Notes: generated by a model not told the origin, from the letters alone. Numbered from the stretch's first letter, positions 21,143 to 42,610 are shown. The stretch: DNA of 64,000 bases from an uncultured Chitinophagaceae bacterium (GCA_964384415.1 CAYLMV010000003.1:6840-70839), one strand, 5' to 3'. Made by a program: numbers and translations.

Positions 21143-21163
21143 CGCTTTACTCCGACTAATACA

Positions 21164-23645: not shown

Positions 23646-23654
23646 AGAGTTTCC

Positions 23655-24938
23655 TTAAAACCAGCTGAGATGATCACTGAACCAGTAGTTTACTTTTGCG
23701 AAGACCCGCACGTCGTTTGAGTAGAGCGGATTGTGCATCCATTGCAGCTGCAAATCGGTCGACAAGAGCGGAGACGGACGGTATGTCGCTCCGATACTGC
23801 CGTTGATAACCGTATTCTTCGGAGCGTTGTCGGACAACTGGTAGCTTGCGTACCCGAACCCGAGGTTTGGTACTATTTGCCGGTTCATCATTGGATACAC
23901 TGCTTGCACGGAAACACCGTTGAGATCCCCGGCATATCCGAAATTCTTTGTGTACGAGATGTTGACAATATCGTATGTGCCGCCGACCGTCAACCGCTGA
24001 CTGTTGTCGTCGGTGTACTGAACATCCGCAAAACGCGCGAAAGTGCGGAAGAGCGGAGAGAATTCATATTCAAGTCCTCCTTCAACCTCCTGCGTACTGC
24101 TCGTGTTGAAGACCGAGAAGATCGAGTTATAGGCAACGCGCGGCTCGCGGAAAAGATAGTCGACCGTGGCGGTCAGCGAAGTCATGATGCCGGCTCGGGC
24201 TTCCGCTTGCGCGCGGGAGATTCGTTCGAAGTTGAAATCGTAATCGGACCTCCCGTAGAGATCGATTTTATTAAGGAGACTGTAGCGGGCGTCGAAGCTT
24301 GCGTATTCTTCTTCGTCGGGAGAATAGGCGATGACCACCACATAGGGATTGAACAGCGAGTCGGCGCGGACCGCCGTGAACGGCTCCGGTTTCCGCGTCC
24401 GGTTCATGAAGCTGAGTCCGACGACAGCATTCTCCGCAGGCTCGTAGGTCAGTTGTCCGCCGTAGAGAGAGTTGTCCGCAAAATCTCTTTTCAAGATGAT
24501 ATCCCGAGACTGGATGACATTGTATCCGCCGTATGCGGTCAGCCCCAGCCGTTTGTCGAAGAGCATCACCTTTGCCACACCGCCATCCATCAATCCATTG
24601 CCCACCCCCGCAAAAACGTATTGGCGGCCCACGGTAACATCCGCAACGTCGGCGATCCCTCGCGCTCCGACGGTCAATGATGAGAGACGCAGCTCCGGAT
24701 CCGTGCCGATGGTGGTACCGAAATCTTTGGAGTACTGGAAATTTGTGTTGAAGGCAAAATGCGGCTGAGCAACATTGAACTGGACGTTTTCAAAACCTCG
24801 CATGTAATTCTGGTTGTCCAGGTCGGCGCTTCGCCCCTGCCATCCATAGAACGACGTCGTGAATCGCCCCGACATGAACTGCGCCGAGGCCGTCGCTGCC
24901 ATGAGAAGAATACAGAAGAGTAGTATTGTATATTTCAT
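23655..24938 (-). CDS. Outer-membrane beta-barrel protein (porin-like)
   Basis: Signal peptide MKYTILLFCILLMAATASAQ, alternating amphipathic beta-strands rich in Y/G/N, and a C-terminal aromatic residue (...HLSWF). Confidence 0.65.
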   Translation of the reverse strand: MKYTILLFCILLMAATASAQFMSGRFTTSFYGWQGRSADLDNQNYMRGFENVQFNVAQPHFAFNTNFQYSKDFGTTIGTDPELRLSSLTVGARGIADVADVTVGRQYVFAGVGNGLMDGGVAKVMLFDKRLGLTAYGGYNVIQSRDIILKRDFADNSLYGGQLTYEPAENAVVGLSFMNRTRKPEPFTAVRADSLFNPYVVVIAYSPDEEEYASFDARYSLLNKIDLYGRSDYDFNFERISRAQAEARAGIMTSLTATVDYLFREPRVAYNSIFSVFNTSSTQEVEGGLEYEFSPLFRTFARFADVQYTDDNSQRLTVGGTYDIVNISYTKNFGYAGDLNGVSVQAVYPMMNRQIVPNLGFGYASYQLSDNAPKNTVINGSIGATYRPSPLLSTDLQLQWMHNPLYSNDVRVFAKVNYWFSDHLSWF

Positions 24939-25078
24939 AGCGACAATTTCCTTTGCTCGTGTGAGAACAATAAAGACAAGGATTGTGCCATTTGTCCCCG
25001 AAACATTTCTAAACGTTTTGCATGGTTTCTTTCAAGCATATGAAACTTCCTTCCAAGTATCAAGAACAATACTACCCC

Positions 25079-25096
25079 ATTCCATAAAATAGGAAT
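25079..25096. promoter_or_regulatory. Palindromic motif ATTCC-ataaaata-GGAAT upstream of the porin/cytochrome operon
   Basis: Read directly, ~140 bp upstream of the porin start. A near-identical TTCC-N9-GGAAT element lies at 33038-33056. Confidence 0.35.
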
Positions 25097-25230
25097 CCCG
25101 CCTCATCAGGATGATGAAGCGGGATTGGTTGCGGTCTGGAGGCTTTGCCGAGCCTCGTGGGATAGACGCCAGCATGTAGGGTGCCGGCGGGGGAAGTATC
25201 GCTCCCGTGAGGAAGCGAATACTGTCGTTG

Positions 25231-25767
25231 TTACTTAGCTGCGATGGGATGCTTGATCTTGTCCCACGCTTCTTTGTACTTAAATTCCTTGTATGTTGGA
25301 CTCTTGCTGTTGTGACATTTAACACAAAGCTTCGGATCGTCTGCCGCCAGAACCAGGCCTGCGGCTTCCGCCTTTGCCTTGTCTTTCATGACCGGGATCG
25401 ACTTATAATCGGACCCGGGACCATGGCATGTTTCGCACTGGACACCATCTTCCTGCTTCAATGCACCGCTGATCGCTTTATCAGCACCGTATCCTGTCAC
25501 ATGGCACTCGAGACATTCGGGAGATTCCGCAGCCTTCGTCTTGAGTCCCTTTCCCTTCGCTATCTCATCTGCCTTCGGAGTCTGAAGCGTCTTGAATGCA
25601 CTTGCGTGTGCCGAACCTTTCCAGATATCGAATTGCTTTCCTGCTTTTTCGGTCTTATGGCAGACCGAACACATCGTCACTCCAACATACTTGTGCTGCG
25701 CCATCGTGGGTAACGCGACGCATAGCACGAGCGTCAGAACAATTGCACTCTCCACTAGTCGTTTCAT
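25231..25767 (-). CDS. Periplasmic tetrahaem cytochrome c
   Basis: 178 aa with a signal peptide and 4 CxxCH motifs (CSVCH, CLECH, CETCH, CVKCH). Confidence 0.8.
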   Translation of the reverse strand: MKRLVESAIVLTLVLCVALPTMAQHKYVGVTMCSVCHKTEKAGKQFDIWKGSAHASAFKTLQTPKADEIAKGKGLKTKAAESPECLECHVTGYGADKAISGALKQEDGVQCETCHGPGSDYKSIPVMKDKAKAEAAGLVLAADDPKLCVKCHNSKSPTYKEFKYKEAWDKIKHPIAAK

Positions 25768-26046
25768 CTTCTGTTCAATTCCTTTCGTCTCTGCAATCTG
25801 ATACTGTGTTCAAATTCTCGACACTTTGACCATCAAATAATGTGCCGAGCCGGTTTGGTAGAATACCTCTATTTTTCGTCGATTTTCAGCAAATGCAATC
25901 TCAAATCCAAGAAGAGGAATCAGGGTGGTTTTGCAAGGATGGGAACAAATTGTTGTGGTAGCATCTCTGGAGACTTCCCTTCTCAATTCAACAGGCATTA
26001 TGCCTCATGGTACCCGGTTGGCCCTTCAATGGCAGCGATGTTGCAC

Positions 26047-27525
26047 TTACTTGTTCGCATGCTGTTTTCTCTCTATCCGTCTGATCAGCAGATACAGTGA
26101 CGTTGCTAAAATGGTTATGATGATCGTCGCAACGCCTAAACCAATTCGTCTGAAGTAATACTCGTCTATGGCTGATTGACCTTCGCCTGAGACGAGCACG
26201 GCAACGGCGAGCCCCTTATGCACAACGTCGCCGAATTTCTGTTCGTTGAAAGAGTGGACCATGGTCCGCGATTGCAGCCGAGCCTGCCTCACATCACGAA
26301 GCTTGAACTTCGCCTCCGAAATTTCCATCCCCTTCTGTTCGGCTTCGTCGACAAGGTTTCGTCCTTTTAGCTCCGCATCCTTAAGGCTGTCGGCGAGCTG
26401 CCGCATGGCAAGAGCGACTTTGTAACCGAGCGAATTATCGTCCCCTTTGTGGCACTTACCACACAATGCGCCTGGAGCAACTCCGAGGAGGCTATCAGTC
26501 GCAGCGAGGATTTCATGGTTGCCGTGGCATGTTTCGCACTCAGGCAGCTTACGATCGTCGAACGCTTTCTTGTGCGGACTCGATGAGAACAGGTCCGCGT
26601 TCAATGCATGGCAGGTCCCGCATACTTTGGAAACCGACTCAACTCCCGGAGGCGCGGCTCCGTGATTTCCGTGGCAGCTGTTGCATGCGGGAGCGGAGAC
26701 ATCATTTTTCTGAAGAAGTGCAATGCCGTGTACGCTGCGGGCAAATTTGACATACTGGTCGGATGGAATTCCGTATTTCTTCATCAAATCGGAATCACTG
26801 TGGCAATGGGCGCACGTCGACGGGATGTTGGTAGGATATACTTTTGACTTCAAGTCGGCCGCCGAGCGTATATCATGACTGCCGTGGCAGCTTGCGCATT
26901 CTGCGGTATGCGCGTCACCCTTGGCATTCCGCATTCCGTGAACACTCGTCTTGTACTTATCCAGCTGGTCGACTGCAATCGAAGGGTTATAGGTCCTCAT
27001 GTATGTTGCGTTCGCATGACATTTCGTGCATGTCTTGACCACGTTGAGCGGATAGACCGGAGAGGCAGCATCTTTCACGTGAACAATCCCGTGCGCCGAG
27101 TGACAGGTGATACACTGGACAATGTGTTCTCTCCCGTTCGTTGCGAGCTTGCCGTGAACGCTCGTCTGAAGGTCTTCCCACTGGTTCGTCGGGAGCTGCG
27201 AACCGTACCGCCTCATCGCTTCCCCATCCGCATGACAGCTTGCGCACATCTTCGAAATTTCATCGCCCTTGGGAACGCCGATGAATCCTTCCTTCTTGCT
27301 CATGGCGACTTCGGCATCATCGGATTTGGAATTCCCTCCGTGACAATCTGCACACGACAATCCCTTCGCTGCATGCACATCGTGCTTGAACATTTTCGAC
27401 GGAGCATCTTCCATCGCCTCATGGCATGTCACGCACTGGTCTCCGGCGAATAGCCTCGGCTGCGATGCAATGATGATCGCCGAGATCGGAATGAGCAGAG
27501 AAAGTTGAAGTCTCATGAGGCCCAT
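26047..27525 (-). CDS. Multihaem cytochrome c (11 CxxCH) with C-terminal TM anchor; subunit of the Rieske/cyt b complex
   Basis: 11 CxxCH motifs, an N-terminal signal peptide and a C-terminal hydrophobic helix ([18 protein letters not shown]). Its start overlaps the cyt b stop. Confidence 0.8.
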
Positions 27526-28592
27526 CCGATGATGGTGAGAAGAATAATGTAGAAGACGACAAACATTCCGATGTACGTTATGAAGCGGTTCTTCTCGCCC
27601 CGCGCGCTCTTCCTGTCCCAGAACGGAACGAGCATCCAGAGGAAGCCTGCAAGTCCGAAGAGCAGGATTCCGAACACTTCGCCGTCGATGAACCCCAATT
27701 TAGCGGGGATCATTTTGAGGGATTGAAACATAAAGAGGAAGTACCACTCCGGTCGTATGCCGGCAGGAGCCGCTGCAAACGCATCAGCTTTCTTCCCCAA
27801 TTCCCAGGGGAAAAATACTGCAAGGATGGCGAGAAGATTCAGAACGATGAGCCACAGAAGCAGATCACGGAGTACGAAATTCGGAAAGAAGGGCATCGTC
27901 TTCGGCGGTACGCCAGTCTGGGTTTCGGACGATTGCGGTTCGCTCATCCCCTGTCGTTGGATGAGCAACAAATGGATTCCGAGAAGGACGGTGAAAATCC
28001 CCGGAAAGACTGCTACGTGAAATCCGAAGAACCGCGAGAGGGTTGCGCCGGTAACTTCTTCGCCGCCGCGAAGGAACATCATGATCGGTTTTCCGACCAC
28101 AGGAACAACTCCGGCGATGTCGGTGCCGACCTTCGTCGCAAAATATGCCAGCTCGTTCCACGGCAAAAGATAGCCGCTGAACCCAAATCCGAGCATCAGG
28201 AAAAACATCAGCATCCCGGTAAGCCAAGTGAGCTCGCGCGGTTTCCGGTACGACTTCTCGAAAAAAACGCTGAACATGTGAATCATCGCCGTCAGGATAA
28301 AGAGGTTGGCCGTCCAGCTGTGGATGGACCGGATCAGCCATCCAAACTGCACTTTCGACATGATGAACTGGATGCTTTCAAACGCAAACTCCTCGCTTCC
28401 TTTGTAATACATCAGCAGCATTATTCCCGTAACAACCTGGATGATGAAAAGGAAGAGCGAAACGCCGCCAAAATAATACCAAATAGAGTGGCGGTGTACC
28501 GGCACGTATTTCTTTCCCATAAACTTAACGAGGTCGTCCAGCATGACCCGTTCATTGATCCAATCGTAGAGAGCCGTTAATCTTTTCTTCAT
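27513..28592 (-). CDS. Cytochrome b (bc/b6-type, fused cyt b + subunit IV)
   Basis: 359 aa and polytopic with cyt b signatures ([25 protein letters not shown]). A 4-bp overlap with the Rieske gene stop indicates translational coupling. Confidence 0.85.
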
Positions 28593-29044
28593 GATTTTTT
28601 CGATATAAAGACATCTCCCCCTTGAACGTTGACTTTGTACTCTTCAAGCGGCCGGGGAGGCGGACCGGAAACGTTCCTGCCGTTGAAATCGTACTTCCCG
28701 TTGTGACAGGCGCACCAGATCAGCCCGTAGTCTTTGCGGTATTGTACCGTACAATCGAGGTGTGTGCATGTTGCCGAGAATGCTCTCAGCTCATCCTTCG
28801 CGGTGCGCAGAAGAATCACCGGTTTCGTTCCAAACTTGATGATCGTTCCGCTGTCCTTGGGGATGTCGGTCAGCTTGCCGGCCTTCACGCTGGAAACTTC
28901 GGCTTCTGCCTGGGTCGGCGGCTTCAGGTATGCGAGAACGGGATAAAGGATGGCGCCAATCCAGGCCAGGAGACTTCCGCCGAGGACGAACTTCAGGAAA
29001 TCTCTCTTATTCTGTTTCAGGTCAACAGGAGGATGTTCGGTCAT
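28589..29044 (-). CDS. Rieske [2Fe-2S] iron-sulfur protein
   Basis: CTHLDC...CACHNG Rieske boxes and an N-terminal TM/Tat-like anchor. Confidence 0.85.
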
Positions 29045-29080
29045 GTCCCAGCCGCAATAATGATGGGAGTTCGTGAAGGA

Positions 29081-30565
29081 TCAGGAACCGCTGTGGCAAT
29101 CGCTGCAATTCATCTGCTTCCACGCATCGCCGACGTCGACAGGGTGCTTGTACTCGATGCCGGTGAGAGATATTCTAAGGCTGTCTTTCTCGAGCTTCTG
29201 AGCAAGAATCACGTGGCAGGTATTGCAGTCTCTCGACAGGACTTTCCCGTCGTCGCCGACATGCTTGCCGTCGTGACAGCGAAAACATCCCGCAGAATAC
29301 AAGTGACCGATGTTGTTCGGATAATGTTTCCACGAAACATTCATCTCGGGGAAGAAATTCTCGCCGTAGATTCGTTTCACGTGTTCGATGGCTGTATCAA
29401 TGCCGGCCGCCATCGTGCGGGAAATCTCGGGATAGCGCTGCGCGTAGAAATCGCGGATGGTGAAGCCGATGCTGTCCATCGCCCCCGCTTCTGTACCGTA
29501 CGGCCTCGTCAGCGCGTCGACGGCCGTCGCCTTGATGGAAGGAAGTGCGGGATCAATCCAACCCAGCGTCATTGCCTGGTTCACCGATTCGTTTGGCGGA
29601 TGATAGATGTGCGTCGGCCGGTTGTGGCAGTCGATGCAATCCATCCGCCGTTTTTCGCCTGCGGCGATCTGTGCGTCGGTCGCAGAGCCGTCGTTCATCG
29701 TATAGGTCACAACAGTCCCGTCGGGCCGCTTCGACTGGACCCACGGAATCACCTGGCGCTGCGAATCAATCGCAACGTAGGTGATTTTGTTGCTGATGTT
29801 CATGTGCCAATGAATGCCGGAGGTCGGACCCGTCTCGCTGTTTCCTCCGCCGATCTTCATCAGGAGCGAAATCCACCATTGAGTATTCTTTTCATCGGAA
29901 AGGAAATAGTTCTTGACCACCTGTTTTTCCGAATAAAATTGTTTCGGCCAGTGGCATCGTTCACAGGTCTCCTGAGCCGGACGAAGGTTTCGTACCGGCG
30001 TTTCGATGGGACGCGAATACTTATGGAAGATCACCGAATAGACCTGATATGCTCCGGACAATTTCGATTTGACGTACCAGTCGGCACCGGAGCCGACGTG
30101 ACATTCAGCGCAAGAGACTCTCGCATGGGGAGAGTAAAGATAAGCGGTGTATTCGGGCTTCATAACGCTGTGACAAACCTCGCCGCAGAACTGAACCGAC
30201 TCCGTGAATTCATACGCTTGATAGCTTCCAAACGCGGAACACATGAGGAGCACCAGGACAAGAGATCCGAAAAAGAGGAACATCGACCGCTGATGCGGGT
30301 CGTTAAGATCGATGCGGGGAAATCGGTTCGCCGTCGTTTGAACCCGTCTCCGCTCGAGAATGACGCCGACAATAGCGATCGCCAATCCCATAAGAAGAAA
30401 GCCGGGAAGAATGACGAAAGCTATGATTCCCATGTACGGGCTTTGGCGTCCGGCGAAGGCTTCCAGGAGAAAGAGGAACAGGATCAGCCCAAAGCTGACG
30501 AGCGCAATTCCTGCGCCGGCAAAACTCGTAGGGTTAAAAAAAGATTTTGGAACAAGCCTTTTCAT
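29081..30565 (-). CDS. Inner-membrane NapC/NirT-type multihaem cytochrome (7 CxxCH, 3 N-terminal TM helices; ImcH-like architecture)
   Basis: 494 aa with three hydrophobic helices in the first ~110 aa and then 7 CxxCH motifs. It lies 36 bp upstream of the Rieske gene. Confidence 0.7.
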   Translation of the reverse strand: MKRLVPKSFFNPTSFAGAGIALVSFGLILFLFLLEAFAGRQSPYMGIIAFVILPGFLLMGLAIAIVGVILERRRVQTTANRFPRIDLNDPHQRSMFLFFGSLVLVLLMCSAFGSYQAYEFTESVQFCGEVCHSVMKPEYTAYLYSPHARVSCAECHVGSGADWYVKSKLSGAYQVYSVIFHKYSRPIETPVRNLRPAQETCERCHWPKQFYSEKQVVKNYFLSDEKNTQWWISLLMKIGGGNSETGPTSGIHWHMNISNKITYVAIDSQRQVIPWVQSKRPDGTVVTYTMNDGSATDAQIAAGEKRRMDCIDCHNRPTHIYHPPNESVNQAMTLGWIDPALPSIKATAVDALTRPYGTEAGAMDSIGFTIRDFYAQRYPEISRTMAAGIDTAIEHVKRIYGENFFPEMNVSWKHYPNNIGHLYSAGCFRCHDGKHVGDDGKVLSRDCNTCHVILAQKLEKDSLRISLTGIEYKHPVDVGDAWKQMNCSDCHSGS

Positions 30566-30642
30566 CTGTGCTGGATATTACCGTTAATGCAACAGAGATG
30601 CAACGGGAATTAAGAAGTGAGAGTTAGGAATTATGAAACAGG

Positions 30643-30718
30643 GTTGTTGTCAGTTGTCAGTTGTCAGTTGTTAGTTTTTGGTTGTTGGTTGTTCATTGTT
30701 GATTGTTCATTGTTGATC
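30643..30718. repeat. Tandem repeat tract: (GTTGTCA)x3-4, GGTTGTT x2 and a 14-bp direct duplication GTTCATTGTTGAT(T/C) overlapping the CbcL-like stop codon
   Basis: Read directly: gttgtcagttgtcagttgtcagttgttagtttttggttgttggttgttcattgttgattgttcattgttgatcc. Confidence 0.7.
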
Positions 30719-32881
30719 CTTCTGCGTCGACCGGTCCCGATTAATGTCTTCCATCAACTTTCGCACTTCCTCCGCCTTGATCCGCTGCAATTCCAGCGGG
30801 TGTTCGTCGTGCATTTCTTCCTCTGTGATCGTCCCTTTGAAGAAGGCAAGGTTGATCGGATACACATCCGGATTGAAAATCACAAAATAGAAGTGCCATA
30901 TAATAATAGAGAGCGTCGCGAGCCAGGCTTCATAATAATGGACGGTGCCTGCAACATCCCACCAGAGCTTGCCTATAATTCCAAGAAATCTGTTGTCAAA
31001 CCAGAGAATGAAGCCCGTCGCTCCCATCACGATCGTCCCCCACACCAGCGCCCAGTACTCGCTCTTCTCCACATAGCTGAACCGGTCGAACTGCGGTCTG
31101 ACCTTGCTCAATCCGATATTGTACTTCGCAACTGCGATGGCGTCGTGAAGGTCTTTCAATTTCGGCAGTAAGTCATGGACGAGCTGTTTTCCCCTGGGGA
31201 CAAACAGCACATAATAGATGTGGTAAAGACCCGCCGCGATCAGGACCAGGCCGGCGGCGCGATGAAGGAGGCTTCGAATGCCGAATACCGCGGGGCTGAG
31301 CGAGCGGATCGGGCCGACCCACCACGCATCCGGGAACTTCAGCATGAAGCCTGTTATCACGAGCGTCGTGAAGCTGATGATCAACGTGCCATGTTGCAGC
31401 CGTTCGCTCAACGTCATCCGGACATACAGTGAATGGCCGAGTTCTTCTTCATAGAGCGTTCCCCGGCGTACTCGCAGCTTCCTTTTGGATTTCTTTACGA
31501 AGTCCAGGGCATTGTGAATGAACATTCCGCCGATCGTGATGACGATGAGGAGGATATATCCGGATGTTACATAATAGAGCATATCGTTGTCTTTGGCTGA
31601 GACGATGATATGCACCGAGCCCTTCGTGAAATTCTCGTTCGCTCCCGGGTGACATTTTCCGCATGTCACTGCAAGGTTGGCCTTATTCACCCTCGATTTG
31701 GGATTGCTCGACGGCAGGATATCATGGATCCCGTGACAACTCGCGCAGTTGGCGACTTCCACGCTTCCGGCTTTCGTCGCAAGACCGTGATAGCTATCGT
31801 CAAAACTTTTTCCGCGCTCCGCTGCAAGGCCGAATTTTTCGTTCAGCCGCACCGAGTTGTGGCACGGCGAACAGACCTGGGCAGATACATGAAGCCTTGA
31901 AACGGGCGAGTTCGGGTCCTTGGGCGCGAGAATCTTGTGCTCTCCGTGGCAATCGGTGCACACGGGCGCGTCTTTATTGCCGGCGAAGAACGCAGAGCCG
32001 TGAATGCTTCCTCTGTATTCCGTTGCAATCGAAGCATGACATTTCGCGCATGTGTTGGGAATATTCAGCCTGTTCACCCGCGATGTCGGGTCTCCCCCCT
32101 TCTTCATCTCGTGGCTCCCGTGGCAATCGACGCAATTGGCCGCTCTTCCATTCCCGCCCTTCAGGGCAACGCCGTGCACGCTTTGTTCATACGACAGGAC
32201 GAAGCTCGCTGTGGGGGCATCGGCCGGCGTCTGTTTGTTCTTCACATGACAGGTGATGCATACCTGCTCCTGCGCGATCTTCAGCTGCGCGGAATCGGTC
32301 CCCGCTTTGACTGCGGTGATATTCTTGGAATGGCAGGCAACGCATGTCGGGGCGTTGAGGTTTCCGGCGAAAAGAGATTTTCCATGAGCCGACGTCAGGT
32401 ATTTCTCTTTCTCAGCCGTGTGGCATTGGCCGCAGCTCTGCACAACGTTTGAAGAATTGAATTTTGTGCCGGGCGTTTTCGGGGACTGGACGTCGTGTTT
32501 TCCGTGACACTCCTTGCACATCTGGCTCTCGTTCCTGCCCGCCTGCAGAAGCAGCGTACTATGGAATGGATGCTTCGGTTCTACATTCTTATGGCATGTT
32601 TCGCACTGGACGGGAGTGATATGTTCCTTGTGCGGCACATTCCCGGGATCAAAACCCGTGTGGCAGGCGACGCAGACCAGTTTCTTGTGCGTCGAATGAC
32701 TCAGAACTTCATCGTTCACGAACAATGAAACAGTCTTTCCGTTGCGCTCGGTAGACAATGTGCTGTCGGAGTGGCAGGCTAAACACTCTTCTTTCGTCTG
32801 CGATCTCAGCAGCGAGGACGAAGCAAGGAGTAGGAGAAAGAGAATCAGAGATTGGAAGAAAAGAGTTCGGGTCTTAAGCAT
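30707..32881 (-). CDS. Fusion of a multihaem cytochrome c (13 CxxCH) with a C-terminal dihaem cytochrome b-type membrane domain (CbcL-like)
   Basis: 724 aa. A signal peptide is followed by 13 CxxCH motifs. The C-terminal ~270 aa has 5 TM helices with conserved His in TM1, TM2, TM3 and TM5, an FdnI/HydC-like arrangement. Confidence 0.75.
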   Translation of the reverse strand: MLKTRTLFFQSLILFLLLLASSSLLRSQTKEECLACHSDSTLSTERNGKTVSLFVNDEVLSHSTHKKLVCVACHTGFDPGNVPHKEHITPVQCETCHKNVEPKHPFHSTLLLQAGRNESQMCKECHGKHDVQSPKTPGTKFNSSNVVQSCGQCHTAEKEKYLTSAHGKSLFAGNLNAPTCVACHSKNITAVKAGTDSAQLKIAQEQVCITCHVKNKQTPADAPTASFVLSYEQSVHGVALKGGNGRAANCVDCHGSHEMKKGGDPTSRVNRLNIPNTCAKCHASIATEYRGSIHGSAFFAGNKDAPVCTDCHGEHKILAPKDPNSPVSRLHVSAQVCSPCHNSVRLNEKFGLAAERGKSFDDSYHGLATKAGSVEVANCASCHGIHDILPSSNPKSRVNKANLAVTCGKCHPGANENFTKGSVHIIVSAKDNDMLYYVTSGYILLIVITIGGMFIHNALDFVKKSKRKLRVRRGTLYEEELGHSLYVRMTLSERLQHGTLIISFTTLVITGFMLKFPDAWWVGPIRSLSPAVFGIRSLLHRAAGLVLIAAGLYHIYYVLFVPRGKQLVHDLLPKLKDLHDAIAVAKYNIGLSKVRPQFDRFSYVEKSEYWALVWGTIVMGATGFILWFDNRFLGIIGKLWWDVAGTVHYYEAWLATLSIIIWHFYFVIFNPDVYPINLAFFKGTITEEEMHDEHPLELQRIKAEEVRKLMEDINRDRSTQKDQQ

Positions 32882-34109: not shown

Positions 34110-35636
34110 GTGCGTCATCTCAGAACGATAAGAGTGAGCGTCGCGTCGGTAGTCTTCATACTCGCGGCGCTCTTTTTTTTGGATTTCATCGGCGCCATCC
34201 CGCCGCGGATCATCTCCGCCCTCCTCGCCTTCCAAATGGGCCCGTCGGTTCTCTCCGTAATCGGCGCGCGCAGCATCGCGTTGTTCGGTTTGCTTTTCGT
34301 GATAGGGACGACGCTGCTCATGGGGCGTGTGTATTGTTCACACCTTTGTCCGCTGGGTACGCTTCAGGATATTTTCATTTGGACCGCAAAGAAAAAGTAT
34401 ACGCACCGCCGCTACCCTTTTAGCAAGCCCGCGTACCTCATTCACTACGCACTCACCGCCATCATCGTCGGATGCGCAATCGGAGGGAGCATGGTGCTGC
34501 TGAATCTGTTTGAACCGTTCAGCAACTTTGGAAGAATTTCTACCGATCTTGCCCGTCCCCTCGTCATCCTGCTCAATAACGCCATTGCGTCTGTATTGTC
34601 GAGGAATCAGGTGTATTTGTTCTACGTAGTTCCGCTCGACGGACTCGCTATTCCCGTCATTATTGCGTCGGCAGTCTTTCTCGGGGGCTTGTACTTGCTG
34701 AGCTTCAAATACGGACGCTTCTTCTGCAATACGATGTGTCCCGTCGGAGGGATTCTGGGCCTTTTCTCTCGTGTTTCCTTCCTCCATATCACTATCAATC
34801 ATAAAGAATGCATCGATTGCGGTCTTTGCGAGAGGGTCTGCCGCGCGCGCTGCATTGACGCCAAGGACCGGAAGATTGATTTCGCGGCCTGTGTCGGATG
34901 CTTCGATTGCATTGCTTCCTGCCCGAATGAAGGCATGACGTACAGCGTGCGCTGGAATAAGACTACCCATCCTGAACCACTGAATGCCGGGAGACGAAAA
35001 GTCATGCTCGGGGCTGGGGCCGGAATGATGCTTTTATTGAAAGCTCCGCCTCCGATCTCTGAGATGAGCGTTGGAAATAGAACTCCGGTTGTACCCCCGG
35101 GCGCAAAGAGCATCGAGCGATTCACACACCATTGCACGGCATGTCATCTCTGCATAAGCTCATGCCCATCGCACGTCCTGCAGCCATCGTTCTTCGAGTT
35201 CGGCCTCGCAGGCATCATGCAGCCGAGGATGGACTATTCCGTCAACTATTGCACGTACGATTGCACTCTCTGCGGACAAGTGTGCCCCACCGGCGCCATC
35301 GCACAGCTCTCGCAGGCCGAAAAGAAACTGGTACAAATCGGAAAAGCGCATTTCACAAAAGAAGACTGCATCGTCGAAACGAAGAAGACCGACTGCGGAG
35401 CTTGCTCGGAGCACTGTCCAACGAAAGCTGTCCACATGATTCCCTATGGGAAGCTCTTCCTCCCGGAAGTTGACAATGAGTACTGCGTCGGATGCGGCGC
35501 GTGCGAGCATGCCTGTCCGACAAAACCGCGGAAAGCCATCTCAGTGCAATCGAATGTGATCCACGCCGTGGCAAAGAAGAGAGACGACGTTAAACTCCAG
35601 ATTCCCGCAGAAACCCCGCAAGATTTCCCGTTTTAA
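34110..35636 (+). CDS. Membrane-bound polyferredoxin, NapH/MauN/RdxA family ([4Fe-4S] x4)
   Basis: 508 aa. TM helices carry CSHLCP/CNTMCP motifs. Four CxxCxxCxxxCP clusters follow (CIDCGLCERVC, CVGCFDCIASCP, CTACHLCISSCP, CTLCGQVCP, CGACSEHCP, CVGCGACEHACP). Confidence 0.7.
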   Translation: MRHLRTIRVSVASVVFILAALFFLDFIGAIPPRIISALLAFQMGPSVLSVIGARSIALFGLLFVIGTTLLMGRVYCSHLCPLGTLQDIFIWTAKKKYTHRRYPFSKPAYLIHYALTAIIVGCAIGGSMVLLNLFEPFSNFGRISTDLARPLVILLNNAIASVLSRNQVYLFYVVPLDGLAIPVIIASAVFLGGLYLLSFKYGRFFCNTMCPVGGILGLFSRVSFLHITINHKECIDCGLCERVCRARCIDAKDRKIDFAACVGCFDCIASCPNEGMTYSVRWNKTTHPEPLNAGRRKVMLGAGAGMMLLLKAPPPISEMSVGNRTPVVPPGAKSIERFTHHCTACHLCISSCPSHVLQPSFFEFGLAGIMQPRMDYSVNYCTYDCTLCGQVCPTGAIAQLSQAEKKLVQIGKAHFTKEDCIVETKKTDCGACSEHCPTKAVHMIPYGKLFLPEVDNEYCVGCGACEHACPTKPRKAISVQSNVIHAVAKKRDDVKLQIPAETPQDFPF

Positions 35637-35706: not shown

Positions 35707-36144
35707 TCAGTTCTTCGGCAGCGAAGTCGCTCCATTCCCTTTCCGATTTTTTTGCAGGCCAATCTCAAGAGCAATGGCCTCGAGGATTTGTTCTATCTGA
35801 ACCGGTTTGTACAAAACCTGGTTCGCCAGAGAGCGGATCTTTGTTTCCCACTCCGGCTTTCCCTGACGATACGCATAGAGGACGATGATAGGGGCATCCG
35901 AATTCTGCATGCGCCTGAATTCAAACTCTCCCAGAAGAGAGGGGATCGACCGTTCAAGGTCGACGACAAGAAGCGAGACACATTTATTGTCCCGCTGAAG
36001 TCCGAGATCCTCGACGGTCTCAGTCGTCACAACTTTGTACTGATTCTGCAGCAAGATCGATAAGCTCTTCGACAAATCCGCATCTGCCGAGTGAACCAGA
36101 ATCGTCTCTTTTTTGTTTGTCCCAGTCACTTTGTTCCGCTTCAA
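35707..36144 (-). CDS. Atypical receiver-domain protein (HSADAD in place of the DDE acidic pocket)
   Basis: 145 aa. LLVVDLE and KP receiver-like elements are present, but the N-terminal acidic motif is degenerate. Confidence 0.45.
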   Translation of the reverse strand: MKRNKVTGTNKKETILVHSADADLSKSLSILLQNQYKVVTTETVEDLGLQRDNKCVSLLVVDLERSIPSLLGEFEFRRMQNSDAPIIVLYAYRQGKPEWETKIRSLANQVLYKPVQIEQILEAIALEIGLQKNRKGNGATSLPKN

Positions 36145-36709: not shown

Positions 36710-37933
36710 TCAGAACTTCGTCCATGAGAGAGTCCGAATAGTTACGCTCTCCCCTTTTTCAATCCGCTCTTTATTTTCTGAAAGTATAATGAGGCAGTTT
36801 GCTGCGGCGAGCCCCCCAACCATGTGCGAGCCCTGGCCGCTCACCGGCTTGACGCTGAAATGACCATCCGGCAATCGCGTTGCGACGGCCCGGACAAACT
36901 CTACTCTTCCGGGACTCCTCCGGAATTCCGATTCCATCAGCGCAAGATAATTCAATACCGCGCCGCGCGGGAGTCCCATTATTTTTTGGAGAGCCGGCAT
37001 CACCAGCACTTCAAGAGATACAAGCGCCGAAACCGGGTTGCCAGGCAATCCAAAGACCAGTTTGTTCCCCCGAGTTCCAAAATAGTTGGGCTTGCCGGGC
37101 TTCATCGCCACTCTCCAGAAGACGGTTTCCACGCGCAAATCGTTCAGCACCTCTTTGACAAAATCAAAATCTCCTACGGAAACTCCCCCGGCAGAAATGA
37201 CAACGTCTGCTTTTTTGATTGCCCGGGCGAAAGCCTTTGAGAGATCTTCCTTCCTATCGCGGACGTGCATTACCAGCGCTGGGTCAATTCCGATTGAACG
37301 CAGGATTGAGGATATAGAGAACGAATTCGAATCCCGAATCTCCCCCCGGCGGAGGCGGCGCGACGGAGACCGGACTTCATTCCCCGTGATAACCAGCGCT
37401 ACTGAAGGCTTCCGATACACTTTCACATCTTCATACCCGAGGGTTGCCATTAATCCAATTACCGGCGGCGTTATGACCGTCCCTTTTGAAAGAACACTCT
37501 CGCCCTTATAAAACTCCTCGCCCCGCTTTCGGAGATTCGCCCCTTCCATGGCCGCCGATTTGAAGATGATCTCTTTGCCTCTCACCTTCACGAGTTCCTT
37601 CATGACCACCGCGTCTGTTCCTCTTGGAAGAGGGGCGCCCGTCATGATTTTCATCGTCTGCAGGGGCTTCAACGTGCGGGGAGCGCTGCTTCCGGCAGCG
37701 ATCGTCAATGCAACCGGGAGCCTGACCTGATTCTGTTCCGAGGCATTCCTGAGATCACGAACTCGAACCGCGTATCCGTCAACCGATGATGAGTCGAACA
37801 GCGGGATTGCTTCGCGCGCCTTGATCTCCTGAGCGAGAGCGTATCCGAGCGAATCGCCGATTGACAACTTCACAGGCATTGAGCGACGCGAGTGTTTTAA
37901 TATCTTTTCTAAGGCTTCTCCGAATTCCAACAC
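36710..37933 (-). CDS. moeA: Molybdopterin molybdotransferase
   Basis: 407 aa with the MoeA domain order and a GGVSVGDFD motif. Confidence 0.85.
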   Translation of the reverse strand: MLEFGEALEKILKHSRRSMPVKLSIGDSLGYALAQEIKAREAIPLFDSSSVDGYAVRVRDLRNASEQNQVRLPVALTIAAGSSAPRTLKPLQTMKIMTGAPLPRGTDAVVMKELVKVRGKEIIFKSAAMEGANLRKRGEEFYKGESVLSKGTVITPPVIGLMATLGYEDVKVYRKPSVALVITGNEVRSPSRRLRRGEIRDSNSFSISSILRSIGIDPALVMHVRDRKEDLSKAFARAIKKADVVISAGGVSVGDFDFVKEVLNDLRVETVFWRVAMKPGKPNYFGTRGNKLVFGLPGNPVSALVSLEVLVMPALQKIMGLPRGAVLNYLALMESEFRRSPGRVEFVRAVATRLPDGHFSVKPVSGQGSHMVGGLAAANCLIILSENKERIEKGESVTIRTLSWTKF

Positions 37934-38096: not shown

Positions 38097-38534
38097 TCAA
38101 CAATTGACCCCTTTGCCGGAGGACTCTTCCACATGGTCATTTATTGCCAGCCAGAAACATCCCGCTGAGAAGATCATATCGCGAATAATGGCTGCGGCGC
38201 CAACCTTCTCCGGAAACCACGTTCCAAAACATCCGCAATTCGCATTCTGATTGCGCAGAGCAAGAATAAGCAAGGCAATGGTGAACGTGCATGTCATCAT
38301 GCCTAAAAAAAACGCCATGAGGCTCGTCCGGAATTTGACGATCAGTGAAAGGCCGAAGAAAACCTCAGCTCCAATAATCCCAATCGCGGCTGGCACGAGA
38401 AAAGGAGCCGGCACCATCTCGAATTTGTTGAGGTCGTCAAGAAACACATAGAACTCCAGGGCCTTGAGGCAACCAGCTGCCAGGTAAGCCGCCCCCAGAA
38501 ACAAACGCAATGTATCGGCAAAGAAGGATTTCAT
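38097..38534 (-). CDS. MauE/DoxX-family redox-associated membrane protein
   Basis: Four TM helices and a conserved NCGCFG motif. The start is set at MKSFFADTL, the internal Met of a longer ORF. Confidence 0.55.
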   Translation of the reverse strand: MKSFFADTLRLFLGAAYLAAGCLKALEFYVFLDDLNKFEMVPAPFLVPAAIGIIGAEVFFGLSLIVKFRTSLMAFFLGMMTCTFTIALLILALRNQNANCGCFGTWFPEKVGAAAIIRDMIFSAGCFWLAINDHVEESSGKGVNC

Positions 38535-38590: not shown

Positions 38591-39298
38591 TTAACCATAA
38601 AGAGAAAGCTTGAGGAACTGAGTGATTGACTCTTGAATAGCCGACACGAATATCCAATCAAAGAAAGCCACGAGTACCCTGGCGGAGAATCTGAGGGAAG
38701 AAAACGTGCCTGCCCCTATGGCCACCATGCCTATAAACCACGCCGCAAAGATATCTGCTTTTTCTAGAATCTGGAATACCGGCAAGTGAGCCAATGCAAG
38801 CAGATTATTTAAGTTCAGAAAAGTCACAACCGAAAAATTTGTCCCTCTTACCATGCAGACAATGCAACCGAGGACCACCGCCGAGACACCCTCCAACAAG
38901 ACAATGAAGTAAGAATAGACAACCACGGAGAGACATTGTCTATAGAGAAGCTCCGAGCGGCTTCCCGAAAGGACGGCGACATAATAAAGAAAAAGTGCAC
39001 CAGCGCCGAATCTTACACTCAACAGGGCTGCCACGAGTACAATGCTCCCCATCGTAATTTCCGCGGTAAGAGTTGAATGCTTCATCCAGAGGCAGAATAG
39101 GACAACGGTTGCCTGGGCCATCGAAACGCACGTCGCTGCCCGGAGAAAAACAGGCTGCCTCAATCGCCGTTCGAAGAACTTTCGAGGCCGAAGAATTAGC
39201 TCACAGACCTCCTGCAAAATCATCGGGGTCCCTCCACAATCCAGGAAAATCAGAGGTACAATAAGAATGTGAATCTCCATTGATCCAAGAGAATGCAC
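38591..39298 (-). CDS. Hypothetical polytopic membrane protein
   Basis: 235-aa ORF with ~6 hydrophobic helices, co-oriented within the peptide locus. The start is uncertain. Confidence 0.4.
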   Translation of the reverse strand: MHSLGSMEIHILIVPLIFLDCGGTPMILQEVCELILRPRKFFERRLRQPVFLRAATCVSMAQATVVLFCLWMKHSTLTAEITMGSIVLVAALLSVRFGAGALFLYYVAVLSGSRSELLYRQCLSVVVYSYFIVLLEGVSAVVLGCIVCMVRGTNFSVVTFLNLNNLLALAHLPVFQILEKADIFAAWFIGMVAIGAGTFSSLRFSARVLVAFFDWIFVSAIQESITQFLKLSLYG

Positions 39299-39343: not shown

Positions 39344-39877
39344 TCACTCCTCGGCGCTCTTTGGCATGAAGGTGAAGCTTAGCATGGAGATGGAACTCAT
39401 CTCCAACATCTGAACTGAGGTAGTCTTAAATGACCATATGCTCGTTCTTCCCATAAAAGGAATCGACTTCTCTTTCTCTGCTTTCCCGAGCCGGTCTGAG
39501 TACTTTTGGCGAAATCGTTCGATCTTATCATCGTCTTTCTGAAGTTGTTTGGTCACTGTGTCAATCGACATAGTGGTAACGATAACTGACTTGAGCAAAC
39601 TGTCCGCCTTGGCAAATTGAAGAGCAACAAGTACTCTTTGAGCATACATTGTATCGAGATAGTACTCGGTGAAATTGCCGCCTCCTCCAGATGGAAACGC
39701 ATGACCATCTGCATTCATCTGCTTAAGCTCTTTTGTGTGGAGTTTGGCACTTACGTCAACAAACTTCATTCCCCAGGATAGTTGCTCAAATGAAAAGAGC
39801 GGATCCTTTAACAATTGTGCGCTCGCCGGACTAAGAATAAGGAACAAGATCGACAAGATCTTCGCGAAAGGCTTCAT
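39344..39877 (-). CDS. Hypothetical secreted protein
   Basis: 177 aa from MKPFAKILSILFLILSPASAQ (a signal peptide). No catalytic motif. Confidence 0.45.
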   Translation of the reverse strand: MKPFAKILSILFLILSPASAQLLKDPLFSFEQLSWGMKFVDVSAKLHTKELKQMNADGHAFPSGGGGNFTEYYLDTMYAQRVLVALQFAKADSLLKSVIVTTMSIDTVTKQLQKDDDKIERFRQKYSDRLGKAEKEKSIPFMGRTSIWSFKTTSVQMLEMSSISMLSFTFMPKSAEE

Positions 39878-39988
39878 CGGGGTGTTCTCCGTTTGATGAA
39901 AGATTCTGTTTTCTTTTCTCACGCGCACTTTCTAAAACAGGAACATCGACCAGATTTTTCCAGGGGAGTGTATTATTATCCACTAAAC

Positions 39989-40021
39989 ATCCTCTGGGTC
40001 AGTTGACCCAACCCAGAGGAT
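39989..40021 (-). terminator. Strong hairpin (11-bp perfect stem) immediately downstream of the precursor-peptide gene; candidate attenuator/terminator
   Basis: ATCCTCTGGGT-cagttgaccca-ACCCAGAGGAT read directly. It lies ~20 nt after the peptide stop, with no clear U-run. Confidence 0.5.
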
Positions 40022-40041
40022 ATTTGGCAAGTATTCCAGAA

Positions 40042-40302
40042 CTAAAGGATCTGGCCGATGACGCATCCGACATAGATAATTGCATAGGTGACTGAACAGA
40101 CTGTCGTCCCCGCTCCGGTCAACAGACAAAAGAATTGTGCCAAGGATGCAGCCGCTCCGCAATCGACAGCTACCCTCCCGCCCGTGATCAGCCGCATCTC
40201 ATTTTGCGTGAGAGGCGATGAAGCGGTCGAGACGGGAAGGAGCGGTAGGATGAGAGTGATCAGGAGCATGCACACCAGCAGCTGTTTCAGGATCTTTTTC
40301 AT
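40042..40302 (-). CDS. Candidate RiPP/bacteriocin-like precursor peptide with double-glycine leader and 4-Cys hydrophobic core
   Basis: MKKILKQLLVCMLLITLILPLLPVSTASSPLTQNEMRLITGG|RVAVDCGAAASLAQFFCLLTGAGTTVCSVTYAIIYVGCVIGQIL. LTQNEMRLITGG fits the LSxxELxxIxGG leader consensus. A C39 peptidase gene lies directly upstream. Confidence 0.6.
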   Translation of the reverse strand: MKKILKQLLVCMLLITLILPLLPVSTASSPLTQNEMRLITGGRVAVDCGAAASLAQFFCLLTGAGTTVCSVTYAIIYVGCVIGQIL

Positions 40303-40450
40303 ATTGCCCCCATTAATTGAATGTGTGATGGTTGATTTTTTCCTGCTCACCGCGGGCTGTTTGCTGCGATCGGGATCGGGAGAGGTGCCTCGACGCCCGA
40401 GTCGAAGAACCATTCCTTCACCCAAACCCATCAAACCGGCGAGCAAGTTG

Positions 40451-40957
40451 TTATTTCTTGCAGAAAACCAGCGCCTCGCCATGCCAAATCCTGGCGAGAC
40501 TCTTTTCCGATAGCTTCAGCCGCCCAATCGCCGGATCGCGCAGGTAGACTTCCCCTTCGTGAACGCTGTCCGCAACGGCAAAATGATCGTTGTGAACGAA
40601 GAGGATCGCCGGGAATTGGTTTCTTCTGAATTCTTCCATAGTCAGCTTCAAGCCCTTCGCACTCAACCCGTTCCGTTCCGCATGATGAAGCAACTCCAGC
40701 ATCGTCGTGCCGTTCCCCGTCATCTCGATCGAACGTTCGATCTCCCTCTGGCCAGCTTCAATTCCGAAGGCATCATACACCATCGCCAGGGAAGCCGGCC
40801 CGCAGTTGTTTTCTCTGGATTGGAATCGAACGCCGTCACTTCCCAGATATTCTCCCCCATATTCCCAGGCCAGATATCTATGAAGACAAGAAGGGTAAAC
40901 TAGAAACACGATGATAAGAGAGAGAAGACCGATGCCCCATGACAATTTCATTTCCAT
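40451..40957 (-). CDS. Standalone peptidase C39 (bacteriocin-processing) domain protein with N-terminal TM anchor
   Basis: 168 aa. The Q...NNCGPASLAMV motif supplies the catalytic Cys, and the NDHFAVAD His and DP Asp motifs are present. No fused ABC transporter domain. Confidence 0.7.
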   Translation of the reverse strand: MEMKLSWGIGLLSLIIVFLVYPSCLHRYLAWEYGGEYLGSDGVRFQSRENNCGPASLAMVYDAFGIEAGQREIERSIEMTGNGTTMLELLHHAERNGLSAKGLKLTMEEFRRNQFPAILFVHNDHFAVADSVHEGEVYLRDPAIGRLKLSEKSLARIWHGEALVFCKK

Positions 40958-40998: not shown

Positions 40999-41529
40999 CT
41001 ATTGAGTGCCTGCAAACCCTGCGATCAGCAGCGAGTCCTTCTGGAAGGTGTTCTCCCCGGTGGATCGTTGGCGAAGCACACCATCTTCGTCTATACAATA
41101 GAGCGACGGGACTGCCGCGACCTTGAAGCTCTTCGCTAATTCGATACTGTTTCCTGCAAGAACTGGAAAAGATGGGGTGATACTTCCTTTCCTTCCGGTT
41201 GAGTCCGCAGAGCCGTCTATACAAACGCCGACGACGTCGAGCGTATTCGAAAAGATTTTATAAACGGAGTCGCAATTGACGATCTCAGTCCGGCAGTGAG
41301 AACAGGCCGGACTGTAAAAAAGGATGAGAAGTTTCCTGGTGCGGGGGGAATCGAAGGCGAACCTCCTTCCATCAGCGAAGGCCGCCGCAAACGGAGGCAT
41401 CCTCTCACCGATCGCGGGCGCACCGGCGTTCCGATGATATTCGATATAGAACGACGATGCGATCGGAAATGCGCAAAGAATTGCTAGCGAGATCGCTGCA
41501 AGCGATCTATGTTTGGACCGAGAGATCAT
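40999..41529 (-). CDS. TlpA-like thiol:disulfide oxidoreductase (thioredoxin fold, CxxC)
   Basis: N-terminal anchor, an ILFYSPACSHC motif and a redoxin-like domain of ~150 aa. Confidence 0.7.
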   Translation of the reverse strand: MISRSKHRSLAAISLAILCAFPIASSFYIEYHRNAGAPAIGERMPPFAAAFADGRRFAFDSPRTRKLLILFYSPACSHCRTEIVNCDSVYKIFSNTLDVVGVCIDGSADSTGRKGSITPSFPVLAGNSIELAKSFKVAAVPSLYCIDEDGVLRQRSTGENTFQKDSLLIAGFAGTQ

Positions 41530-41567: not shown

Positions 41568-41701
41568 CCCCTTATCACACTGGCATGTTCAGATTGGATA
41601 GTTTCTACACTCAAAGATAGCGGAAGAGCACGGAGTTGTCAAGAAGATTCTAAAAAAATGTGAATTGCGGAGAAGCACTAAAAAATTTCCGGAACTTTTG
41701 A

Positions 41702-42610
41702 TCAGTGTCCTTCGCCCTTCAACATCTTGAACGCGTGAAGCAGCGTCGGGAAGAGCGCGTCGAGTCCGTCGGTCACCGCGCCTTTCGATCCGGGAAAACT
41801 TACGATAATTGTTTTTCCACGGATTCCGGAGATGCTTCGGGAGAGCATCGCAAGAGGAGTTCGCGCTTGCCCGTACGAACGCACCGCTTCTGTTACTCCC
41901 GGAATTTCCCGCTCGACAATTATCCTAATCGCCTCGGGGGTATGGTCGCGGGGCCCGAAGCCGGTCCCCCCGGTGGTGAGAATAAGATCAAGGTGGAGAG
42001 AGTCCGCAAAATGAATCAGCCTCTCTTCGATTTGTTTCACGTCGTCGGGGATAACTTCGTACGCTGCCACTTCAATTTTGTAATCTTGTAATCTTGCAAC
42101 GATCATCTTCCCCGACACGTCTTCCTTTTTTCCGCCCGCAACAGAATCCGACAGCACAAGGACTGCGGCGCGAAGGTGTTGTCCGTCCAGCTGTGCGAAA
42201 TCGGACTTGCCCCCTTTCTTGCTGAGGAGTTTTACTCCGAGGATTTCCATCTCATCGTCAAGCATTTTCATCATGTCGTACAACGTCAATGCGGCGACCG
42301 ACGCCCCCGTGAGCGCCTCCATCTCCACGCCCGTTTTGTAGATTGCCTTCACCTCAACCTTAGTCGTAATCTCATCTTTCCCGATTTGAAAATCTACTCC
42401 GACAAAGTCGACCGGCAGCGGATGGCAATACGGAATAATCTGGCTCGTGTTCTTCGCCGCTTGTATCGCGGCGACCTTCGCCACCGGGAGAGGATCCCCT
42501 TTGGGGATCTTGTTCTCGCGGATGAGTGCGATCGTTGCCGGAGAGACGCGTAAAATAGATTGAGCGACTGCAGTGCGAAGCGTTGTTATTTTTCGTGAGA
42601 TGTCACGCAT
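41702..42610 (-). CDS. moaC: Bifunctional molybdenum cofactor biosynthesis protein MoaC/MoaB(MogA)
   Basis: 302 aa with an N-terminal MoaC domain and a C-terminal MogA/MoaB domain (GGTGF). Confidence 0.8.
   Translation of the reverse strand: MRDISRKITTLRTAVAQSILRVSPATIALIRENKIPKGDPLPVAKVAAIQAAKNTSQIIPYCHPLPVDFVGVDFQIGKDEITTKVEVKAIYKTGVEMEALTGASVAALTLYDMMKMLDDEMEILGVKLLSKKGGKSDFAQLDGQHLRAAVLVLSDSVAGGKKEDVSGKMIVARLQDYKIEVAAYEVIPDDVKQIEERLIHFADSLHLDLILTTGGTGFGPRDHTPEAIRIIVEREIPGVTEAVRSYGQARTPLAMLSRSISGIRGKTIIVSFPGSKGAVTDGLDALFPTLLHAFKMLKGEGH

Follow-up and report, generated by a model that had tools for sequence, protein, structure and literature searches.

Double-glycine leaders are understood as cytoplasmic tags for export and cleavage that are read by the C39 domains of ATP-binding cassette (ABC) transporters. 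In class II double-glycine bacteriocins and microcins served by peptidase-containing ABC transporters (PCATs) such as LahT, PCAT1 and ComA, the leader lies at the extreme N-terminus of the precursor, and its cleavage in the cytoplasm is coupled to ABC export. Here we describe a locus in a 64,000-nucleotide stretch of DNA from an uncultured Chitinophagaceae bacterium (GCA_964384415.1, CAYLMV010000003.1:6840-70839; hereafter the window, from whose first letter positions are counted), where a minus-strand gene at 40042..40302 encodes an 86-aa precursor with a double-glycine leader placed behind a Sec-type signal peptide. This gene lies 149 nt downstream of the gene for a stand-alone C39 peptidase and is the third in a co-directional minus-strand cassette coding for a TlpA-like redoxin, the C39 peptidase, the peptide, a protein here called X, a Yip1/YknW-like protein and a MauE protein. 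The product may be a precursor from which a hydrophobic ribosomal peptide, stapled by disulfides, would mature outside the cytoplasm without a peptidase-ABC exporter, and on the evidence of the sequences we hold its precursor nature and its processing in the periplasm to be highly probable.

The window system shares with the PCAT-served bacteriocins the leader positions L(-12), E(-8), L or M(-7), I or V(-4) and GG, the C39 fold, the Q/C/H/D catalytic residues and a hairpin after the precursor gene, whereas its leader is internal and its peptidase uncoupled from any transporter. Among class II double-glycine bacteriocins, the bacteroidetocins resemble it most closely. These were proposed as class IIf of Bacteroidota and combine a four-Cys double-glycine peptide, a thiol oxidoreductase dedicated to it and a protein with multiple transmembrane (TM) helices; Bacteroides is without general disulfide machinery, and bacteroidetocin loci carry a thiol oxidoreductase of their own (Coyne et al., 2019; PMC6671954). 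Compared by description, the two have in common the host group at phylum level, the double-glycine leader, a four-Cys mature peptide of about 42-44 aa, genes for a thiol oxidoreductase and a multi-TM protein beside the peptide gene, and no obvious classical immunity gene. Bacteroidetocin precursors, however, start with a double-glycine leader of 15-16 aa and are cut and exported by a C39-fused ABC transporter, whereas here a Sec signal and a stand-alone anchored C39 peptidase are found, and the core is far more hydrophobic. Analogues of three of the bacteroidetocin unit's four genes are present (Yip1-like, peptide, and redoxin/MauE), the transporter being replaced by the stand-alone C39 peptidase, so that bacteroidetocins are the closest working likeness with two of their defining features, the N-terminal leader and the C39-ABC transporter, missing.

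To our knowledge, FapD is the only characterised periplasmic C39 peptidase. The authors who described it in the Fap amyloid system of Pseudomonas called its class uncharacterised and its substrate unknown (PMC5557850). Like FapD, the window enzyme would be a stand-alone C39 peptidase acting in the periplasm on Sec-exported partners, and FapD shows that extracytoplasmic C39 activity is feasible; Fap proteins, however, lack canonical double-glycine leaders, whereas the presumed substrate here has a textbook one. A third parallel is offered by SdpC of the SDP (sporulation-delaying protein) system, a Sec-exported precursor from which further processing yields a toxic, hydrophobic and disulfide-containing peptide some 42 aa long. 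The efflux and protection system for the SDP toxin of Bacillus is YknWXYZ, of which YknW is the Yip1-family member (PMC4887032). The window locus thus resembles SDP in the Sec-exported precursor, the disulfide-containing hydrophobic peptide and a Yip1-family protein, which serves self-protection there, but SDP of Bacillus subtilis belongs to a Gram-positive host, lacks a double-glycine leader and is processed with SdpA and SdpB rather than by C39. Finally, as with MauE and MauD of methylamine dehydrogenase, a MauE-family protein and a thioredoxin-fold periplasmic protein would be dedicated to making the disulfides of one small Cys-rich exported polypeptide, the client being the MauA subunit in that system and a double-glycine-leader peptide in this one. 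We found no description in the literature open to search of a cassette combining a Sec signal, a double-glycine leader and a periplasmic C39 peptidase, nor of a C39 peptidase with MauE or VKOR (vitamin K epoxide reductase), although such absence is not proof of novelty.

The peptide open reading frame (ORF), which runs from ATG at 40300-40302 to TAG at 40042-40044 on the minus strand, is genuine, has its start at 40302 and shows purifying selection on the protein. The translation given by the original prediction was exact, reading MKKILKQLLVCMLLITLILPLLPVSTASSPLTQNEMRLITGG followed by RVAVDCGAAASLAQFFCLLTGAGTTVCSVTYAIIYVGCVIGQIL, and homologues are found at 26-85% identity. Between the window and locus L006 (85% peptide identity), the 86 codons differ by 10/5/38 substitutions at codon positions 1/2/3 (31 codons changed only synonymously, 13 non-synonymously), and over the 147 nt 5' of the ORF the counts by phase are 6/8/9, without bias; it is this third-position bias inside the ORF, absent upstream, that establishes its reality and its selection as protein. 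A Shine-Dalgarno-like GGGGG (40307..40311, minus strand) lies 4 nt 5' of the ATG, and the ribosome-binding site is kept as GGGGG or GGAGG in every aligned locus. The longest possible frame, 146 aa from an ATG at 40482, was ruled out by the lack of codon-phase bias upstream. Three public gene calls of 129-145 aa (P0001, P0002 and P0005) likewise overrun the peptide ORF (within window 40303-40482, minus strand) across a non-coding RNA element, and the apparent conservation of their extension is conservation of RNA or DNA, not of coding sequence.

A word-indexed search with the peptide gave seven close relatives, and a profile run against 1.84 billion cluster representatives gave 15 matches at E<=1e-3, of which 13 are family peptides. 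The family comprises about 13 clusters at 50% identity, with peptides of 80-91 aa and one over-extended public call of 129 aa. It has no match in Pfam, NCBIfam or PADLOC scans, and only two true loci were found when 185,579 GTDB species genomes were scanned with the peptide alignment. Across 13 representatives, down to 26-35% identity, M1, G41, G42 and four Cys are invariant. In every one the N-terminus consists of a basic n-region, about 17 aa of hydrophobic sequence and a c-region of small residues; in the window this Sec-type (type I) signal peptide covers aa 1-27 (40222..40302, minus strand) and reads MKKILKQ, then LLVCMLLITLILPLLPV, then S-T-A, with small residues at -3 and -1. By the -3/-1 rule, signal peptidase I is predicted to cut after A27. 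A lipoprotein was considered and ruled out, the Cys at position 11 not being conserved and a lipobox being absent.

The double-glycine leader, or propeptide, follows at aa 28-42 (SSPLTQNEMRLITGG; 40177..40221, minus strand), with L at -12, E at -8, M at -7, I at -4 and G at -2 and -1. Its motif LTQNEMRLITGG has the hydrophobic residues at -4, -7 and -12 and the glycines at -1 and -2 of the consensus LSxxELxxIxGG. In the 13 representatives position -12 is L, M or I, M(-7) is nearly invariant (V in one) and position -4 is I, V or L in 12 and H in one. The leader does not stand at the extreme N-terminus in any member, as a Sec-type signal of 27-29 aa precedes it throughout. An arrangement of two leaders in series had been noticed in the original prediction, together with recognition of the second by a C39 peptidase. 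Both proposals have gained from the comparison of loci: n-, h- and c-regions with an AXA-like site are shared by all family members and by three other core types, a catalytically intact C39 gene lies directly upstream of a leader whose positions are conserved, and an alignment of homologous small ORFs, a check of the kind suggested at the time, finds the GG motif and the four Cys kept across the 13 representatives.

The C39 peptidase (40451..40957, minus strand; PF03412 at 99.8 bits against a cut-off of 22) has one N-terminal anchor helix. Aligned to LahT150 (6mpz) and PCAT1 (4ry2), it has Q46, C52, H125 and D141 at the catalytic positions, and these four residues, which mark it as a C39-family peptidase, do not vary in 17 homologues. 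Among the close homologues, all 28 of which are short (110-201 aa), none has the length of a peptidase-ABC transporter, even though some sources label these short proteins 'ABC-type bacteriocin exporter'. Since most of the homologues carry a basic N-terminal cluster (for instance RKR or RRRK) ahead of one TM helix, the positive-inside rule points to a catalytic domain on the periplasmic side. The window enzyme gives weak matches to the FapD and FilB models but is not a FapD orthologue, as it scores 34.5 bits against the equivalog cut-off of 330 of the FapD-type model (NCBIfam NF058616).

Cleavage after G42 would leave a 44-aa hydrophobic core (40045..40176, minus strand) with a grand average of hydropathy (GRAVY) of 1.42 and a computed monoisotopic mass of 4433.23 Da with two disulfides. 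The even spacing of four core Cys and the pair of disulfides that they could form, both part of the original prediction, have stood up well: the Cys, at core positions 6, 17, 27 and 38 (spacing 11/10/11), are invariant, and the operon holds a dedicated thioredoxin-fold protein as well as MauE. An AlphaFold2 model, made from a shallow alignment, predicts a helix-turn-helix hairpin in the core, with helices at precursor residues 48-61 and 66-85 at a predicted local distance difference test (pLDDT) score of about 80. Each predicted helix has two Cys 11 residues apart, which therefore lie on the same face, and this would suit an antiparallel hairpin in which C48-C80 and C59-C69 are the most likely disulfide staples. 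Twin-CxnC hairpins are an analogue of such a stapled core. A Foldseek search with the peptide model returned nothing significant.

The two proteins to which disulfide formation may be ascribed stand at the ends of the cassette. The first gene (40999..41529, minus strand) encodes a TlpA/ResA-like thioredoxin-fold protein with an N-terminal membrane anchor and the active site CSHC, which in most loci is CSHC, CEHC or CGHC; its MauD score of 23.4 bits is far short of the cut-off of 188.6. Oxidising sites such as those of DsbA (CPHC) and protein disulfide isomerase (PDI; CGHC) characteristically have a His before the second Cys, and by this analogy the redoxin would act as an oxidant. The last gene (38097..38534, minus strand) encodes a MauE/DoxX-family membrane protein (PF07291 at 65.4 bits against 27) with a C-x-C-FG motif that is invariant in five loci.

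The order redoxin-C39-peptide-X-Yip1(-MauE) recurs in L001, L009/L010, L012, L013, L119, L136 and one contig from ENA, and partly in L011, with peptides 58% (L001) and 35% (L009/L010) identical to that of the window. As the same order is found in L009, L136 and the ENA contig in chromosomal neighbourhoods that differ from the window's, the cassette is a unit. Seven loci (L012, L013, L074, L080, L119, L123 and L124) encode a second type of precursor, in which the design MKKAISLLMVFLVVLTLLGPVSA followed by QPKMSAQLDSNEMLQITGG is kept and the core is unrelated. It has the same signal peptide (here MKK, then AISLLMVFLVVLTLLG, then PVSA with the predicted cut before QP), a leader LDSNEMxQI[TS]GG and the same chromosomal site before moeA (L012 5686-5904, L119 3339-3557). 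The second-type core has 28-32 aa and six Cys, for example KTGCGYFGAISCCCLDLWIIQLCLCAYTG, in the pattern C-x8-9-CCC-x8-C-x-C with a conserved CCLDLW motif (five Cys in L013 and L123, where CC replaces CCC), and it matches no family. In L136 a signal peptide and a longer spacer precede LTAAEMNAIIGG and a CCLDLW-type core, and in L014 a signal peptide and LSIESMQINYGG precede a 53-aa hydrophobic core that is rich in Ala and Gly and has two Cys. Because unrelated cores share this design, signal and double-glycine leader form a conserved platform for diverse Cys-containing hydrophobic cores. At L014 (5001-10591) the stand-alone C39 peptidase and, behind it, the precursor are followed by genes for two membrane proteins, an ABC ATPase of the DrrA/lantibiotic-protection type, a member of the YknW family (75 bits) and an adaptor resembling MacA, a layout that recalls the SDP-protection pump YknWXYZ of Bacillus.

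The exchange of cores is mirrored in the neighbouring genes. Identities of the window proteins to those of L001 (same core type) and L012 (other core type) are 63 and 65% for the flanking MoeA and 83 and 76% for the flanking MoaC/B; within the cassette they are 56 and 47% for C39, 43 and 38% for the redoxin, 42 and 33% for MauE, 51 and 24% for X, 44 and 20% for the Yip1-like protein, and 45 and about 20% for the core. The identities of X and the Yip1-like protein thus fall with that of the core, whereas those of C39, redoxin and MauE fall less, so that X and the Yip1-like protein track the core as in toxin-immunity pairs. By the same comparison, the cassette evolves faster than its housekeeping flanks, its proteins being 20-56% identical between genomes and the flanking molybdenum-cofactor proteins 63-83%. 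X (39344..39877, minus strand) is a secreted 177-aa protein without a family and a candidate cognate immunity or handling protein; its model, of low confidence (pLDDT 62), is similar to YjgB (DUF4309) and to the immunity proteins TsiN and RhsI1. The Yip1/YknW-like polytopic membrane protein (38591..39280, minus strand) falls below the cut-off of the YknW family (E 4.5e-5; 23 bits against 110), and its homologues in L001 and L012 carry PF04893.

Two RNA elements flank the peptide gene. The 149-nt spacer between C39 and the peptide is conserved at the DNA level even across cassettes with unrelated cores, and between the C39 stop and the ribosome-binding site it holds a conserved structured RNA, a 106-nt extended hairpin (40338..40449, minus strand). 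Twelve distinct sequences share this hairpin of 37 pairs, with other copies at L001 7853-7964, L009 5851-5960, L012 5540-5650, L119 3193-3302 and more; a covariance model search did not find it in L011 and L014. Its loop UCGGGC is nearly invariant (UUGGGC in L009), as is the basal helix, and the 3' bulge ACAGCCC is invariant. In the alignment 93% of the cells are paired, compared with 39-48% when partners are slid, compensatory changes occur at 18 pairs, and none of 500 shuffles reaches any of five measures; conserved G-U pairs make the hairpin specific to the sense strand. The constancy of loop and bulge suggests a specific ligand or protein or, their GGGC and GCCC being complementary, a tertiary contact. 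An Rfam 15 scan of the region found no family, only spurious microRNA-type matches at E>2, far below gathering scores. The covariance model R1 has one match in the window and otherwise matches only upstream of these peptide genes. A degenerate 20-mer scan of metagenomes gave mostly chance matches, with seven new loci passing a filter on the conserved 5' arm (L041, identical to the window, L074, L080, L093, L119, L123 and L124), and covariance-model searches recovered all seven along with a truncated copy in L029. With its strong covariation, the hairpin is a previously uncatalogued structured RNA and a candidate cis-acting motif.

Directly after the peptide stop lies an 18-bp stem-loop (39985..40025, minus strand), and a 91-nt segment that contains it folds at -32.8 kcal/mol (z -3.6), with a centroid of this hairpin and one small stem at -30.4. 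In nine of nine loci checked (the window, L001, L006, L009, L011, L012, L013, L014 and L119), a G+C-rich stem-loop of 11-18 bp occupies this place, its position kept and its sequence not, as for an attenuator or terminator that would uncouple the precursor from the downstream genes. Short messages bracketed by hairpins are common for peptide-precursor genes. By analogy, we take the two hairpins to bracket a short, abundant mRNA for the precursor inside the operon and probably to stabilise or process it.

Farther out, a match to a sigma-70-like promoter (TTGACA-17-TATCTT; 41614..41642, minus strand) 5' of the redoxin gene is a possible operon promoter; it is a consensus match, and such sites are no more numerous in the window than in shuffled sequence. 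The cassette is flanked by moaC/moaB (41702-42610) and moeA (36710-37933), and it lies between molybdenum-cofactor genes in at least five genomes including L001, L012, L013 and L119, with moaC/moaB upstream where read and moeA downstream. A functional link to these flanks was considered and ruled out, the cassette lying elsewhere in L009, L014 and L136. Just downstream of moeA follows a conserved gene for a 137-160-aa protein with a receiver-domain match that is weak and sub-threshold (window 35707-36144, minus strand; L119 6925-7407; L001 11693-12106; L012 9545-9961). Large ORFs of the window encode CcmF, multihaem cytochromes, an S9 peptidase and similar proteins. A respiratory block at 18911-32881 and 34110-35636 comprises a CcmF-type cytochrome c assembly protein, several multihaem cytochromes (one of them a fusion with a cytochrome b561-like domain), a protein like NapC/NirT and another, rich in Cys, in which ferredoxin-like CxxCxxC motifs recur; similar cytochromes lie downstream of the L001 cassette.

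The maturation route that we propose would begin with the signal peptide, which would direct the precursor through Sec, signal peptidase I probably cutting after A27 and leaving SSPLTQNEMRLITGG joined to the core in the periplasm. There the CSHC thioredoxin-fold protein, re-oxidised by the MauE/DoxX-type protein, would make the two disulfides, and the anchored C39 peptidase would read the double-glycine leader, cut after G42 and free the 44-aa core of 4433.2 Da. The core may then act as a membrane-active antagonistic peptide, comparable to a bacteriocin, with cognate roles in protection or handling for X and the Yip1/YknW-like protein. The pore-forming bacteriocin that the original prediction saw in the core would find indirect evidence in the exchange of cores, the co-varying neighbours, the links to YknW and ABC proteins and the sub-threshold matches to PF10439. 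At the RNA level, the 106-nt hairpin and the terminator-like hairpin may stabilise or process the short mRNA, probably boosting the supply of precursor. We favour this full route with an antagonistic product, without strong conviction, and for the antagonistic function in itself the balance is even or a little better. The wider proposition, a hitherto undescribed pathway by which diderms would mature polymorphic ribosomal peptides independently of a transporter, built from Sec, a private PDI-like/MauE pair and a membrane-anchored periplasmic C39 peptidase, with core and X/Yip1 modules exchanged and a hairpin controlling the stability or translation of the precursor mRNA, is more tentative and falls slightly short of an even chance.

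Several points weigh against this interpretation. Processing, topology, disulfide pattern and antimicrobial activity are all inferred; the likeness of X to immunity proteins is weak given the pLDDT of its model, and the redox direction is uncertain because TlpA/ResA-type proteins are usually reductants. No MauE was called in L009 and L136. The matches to Bacteriocin_IIc (PF10439), the family of class II double-glycine bacteriocins, are sub-threshold: the window peptide has none, and in the three of 13 family members that have one the best (E 0.0066; 16.9 bits against 27.1), which begins just after the signal peptide, stays below the gathering score. The family is rare and known from metagenome-assembled genomes of uncultured Bacteroidota type, for which reason no organism is at hand. 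An outer-membrane export component was not found among the cassette genes, and this also speaks for a rival in which the maturation route is the same but the product is no weapon and serves the producer, for instance as a small subunit in the membrane or periplasm, as a Cys peptide for redox or metal binding, in signalling, or as a subunit of a surface or fibre in the manner of the FapD and FilB systems. A core of such extreme hydrophobicity could stay in the inner membrane, the C39 peptidase weakly matches the models of FapD and FilB, MauE and MauD act in the maturation of an enzyme subunit, and molybdenum-cofactor genes enclose the cassette in five genomes, with multihaem cytochrome and CcmF genes alongside. 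In L009, L136 and L014, however, it lies elsewhere, which marks the link to molybdenum-cofactor and cytochrome genes as lineage synteny; moreover, unrelated cores are swapped at one chromosomal site behind a conserved leader, X and Yip1 diverge along with them and the cassette outpaces its flanks, all typical of conflict systems, and a related cassette is tied to YknW and a protection-type ABC transporter. A producer-serving product is thus unlikely in our estimation, if deserving of serious consideration.

A conventional class II or microcin system would place the C39 peptidase in the cytoplasm, where it would cut the 42-aa region as one long leader, its hydrophobic N-terminus merely tethering the precursor to the membrane and an ABC exporter being encoded elsewhere. 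The characterised double-glycine-leader peptidases of bacteriocin systems all work on the cytoplasmic side, the N-terminus of the window C39 (MEMK) is less clearly basic than those of its homologues, and an ABC ATPase lies nearby in L014. Yet this ATPase is of the DrrA/protection type and not of the PCAT type; most C39 homologues have RKR-type basic residues before the TM helix, which implies an N-in/C-out orientation; the peptides begin with textbook Sec signals and AXA-like sites, such as VSA before QP; and the redoxin and X bear export signals as the precursor does. There is no peptidase-ABC exporter or HlyD in the 64-kb window, nor a PCAT with accessory protein in the cassettes of L001, L009, L012, L013, L119 and L136, and nearly all related loci lack a peptidase-ABC exporter as well; we consider a conventional system quite improbable. 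That the peptide ORF is a chance, untranslated frame with a coincidental GG motif could draw on the lack of a Pfam or NCBIfam family and on the frequency of the relaxed pattern [LMIV]xxx[EDQ][LMIV]xx[IVL]xGG, which has two occurrences in the window's six frames where shuffles predict 0.5, so that the motif by itself is weak evidence. Chance is nevertheless excluded by the C39 gene 149 nt away, which adjoins in every locus examined, by the GG and four Cys invariant across 13 clusters and by the codon-position bias, to which the conserved ribosome-binding site may be added; this reading is hardly credible and can be regarded as already refuted by the family alignment and the codon-position bias.

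Should the proposed periplasmic maturation be true, the pair of double-glycine leader and C39 peptidase can operate after translocation, and the periplasmic C39 class would gain a clearly predicted substrate and cleavage site. The six genes would make up a compact and possibly portable system for disulfide-stapled hydrophobic peptides in Gram-negative hosts, the family would provide unexplored cores, rich in Cys, from Bacteroidota of soil and sediment, and the hairpin would be a new candidate cis-acting RNA motif tied to peptide-precursor genes.

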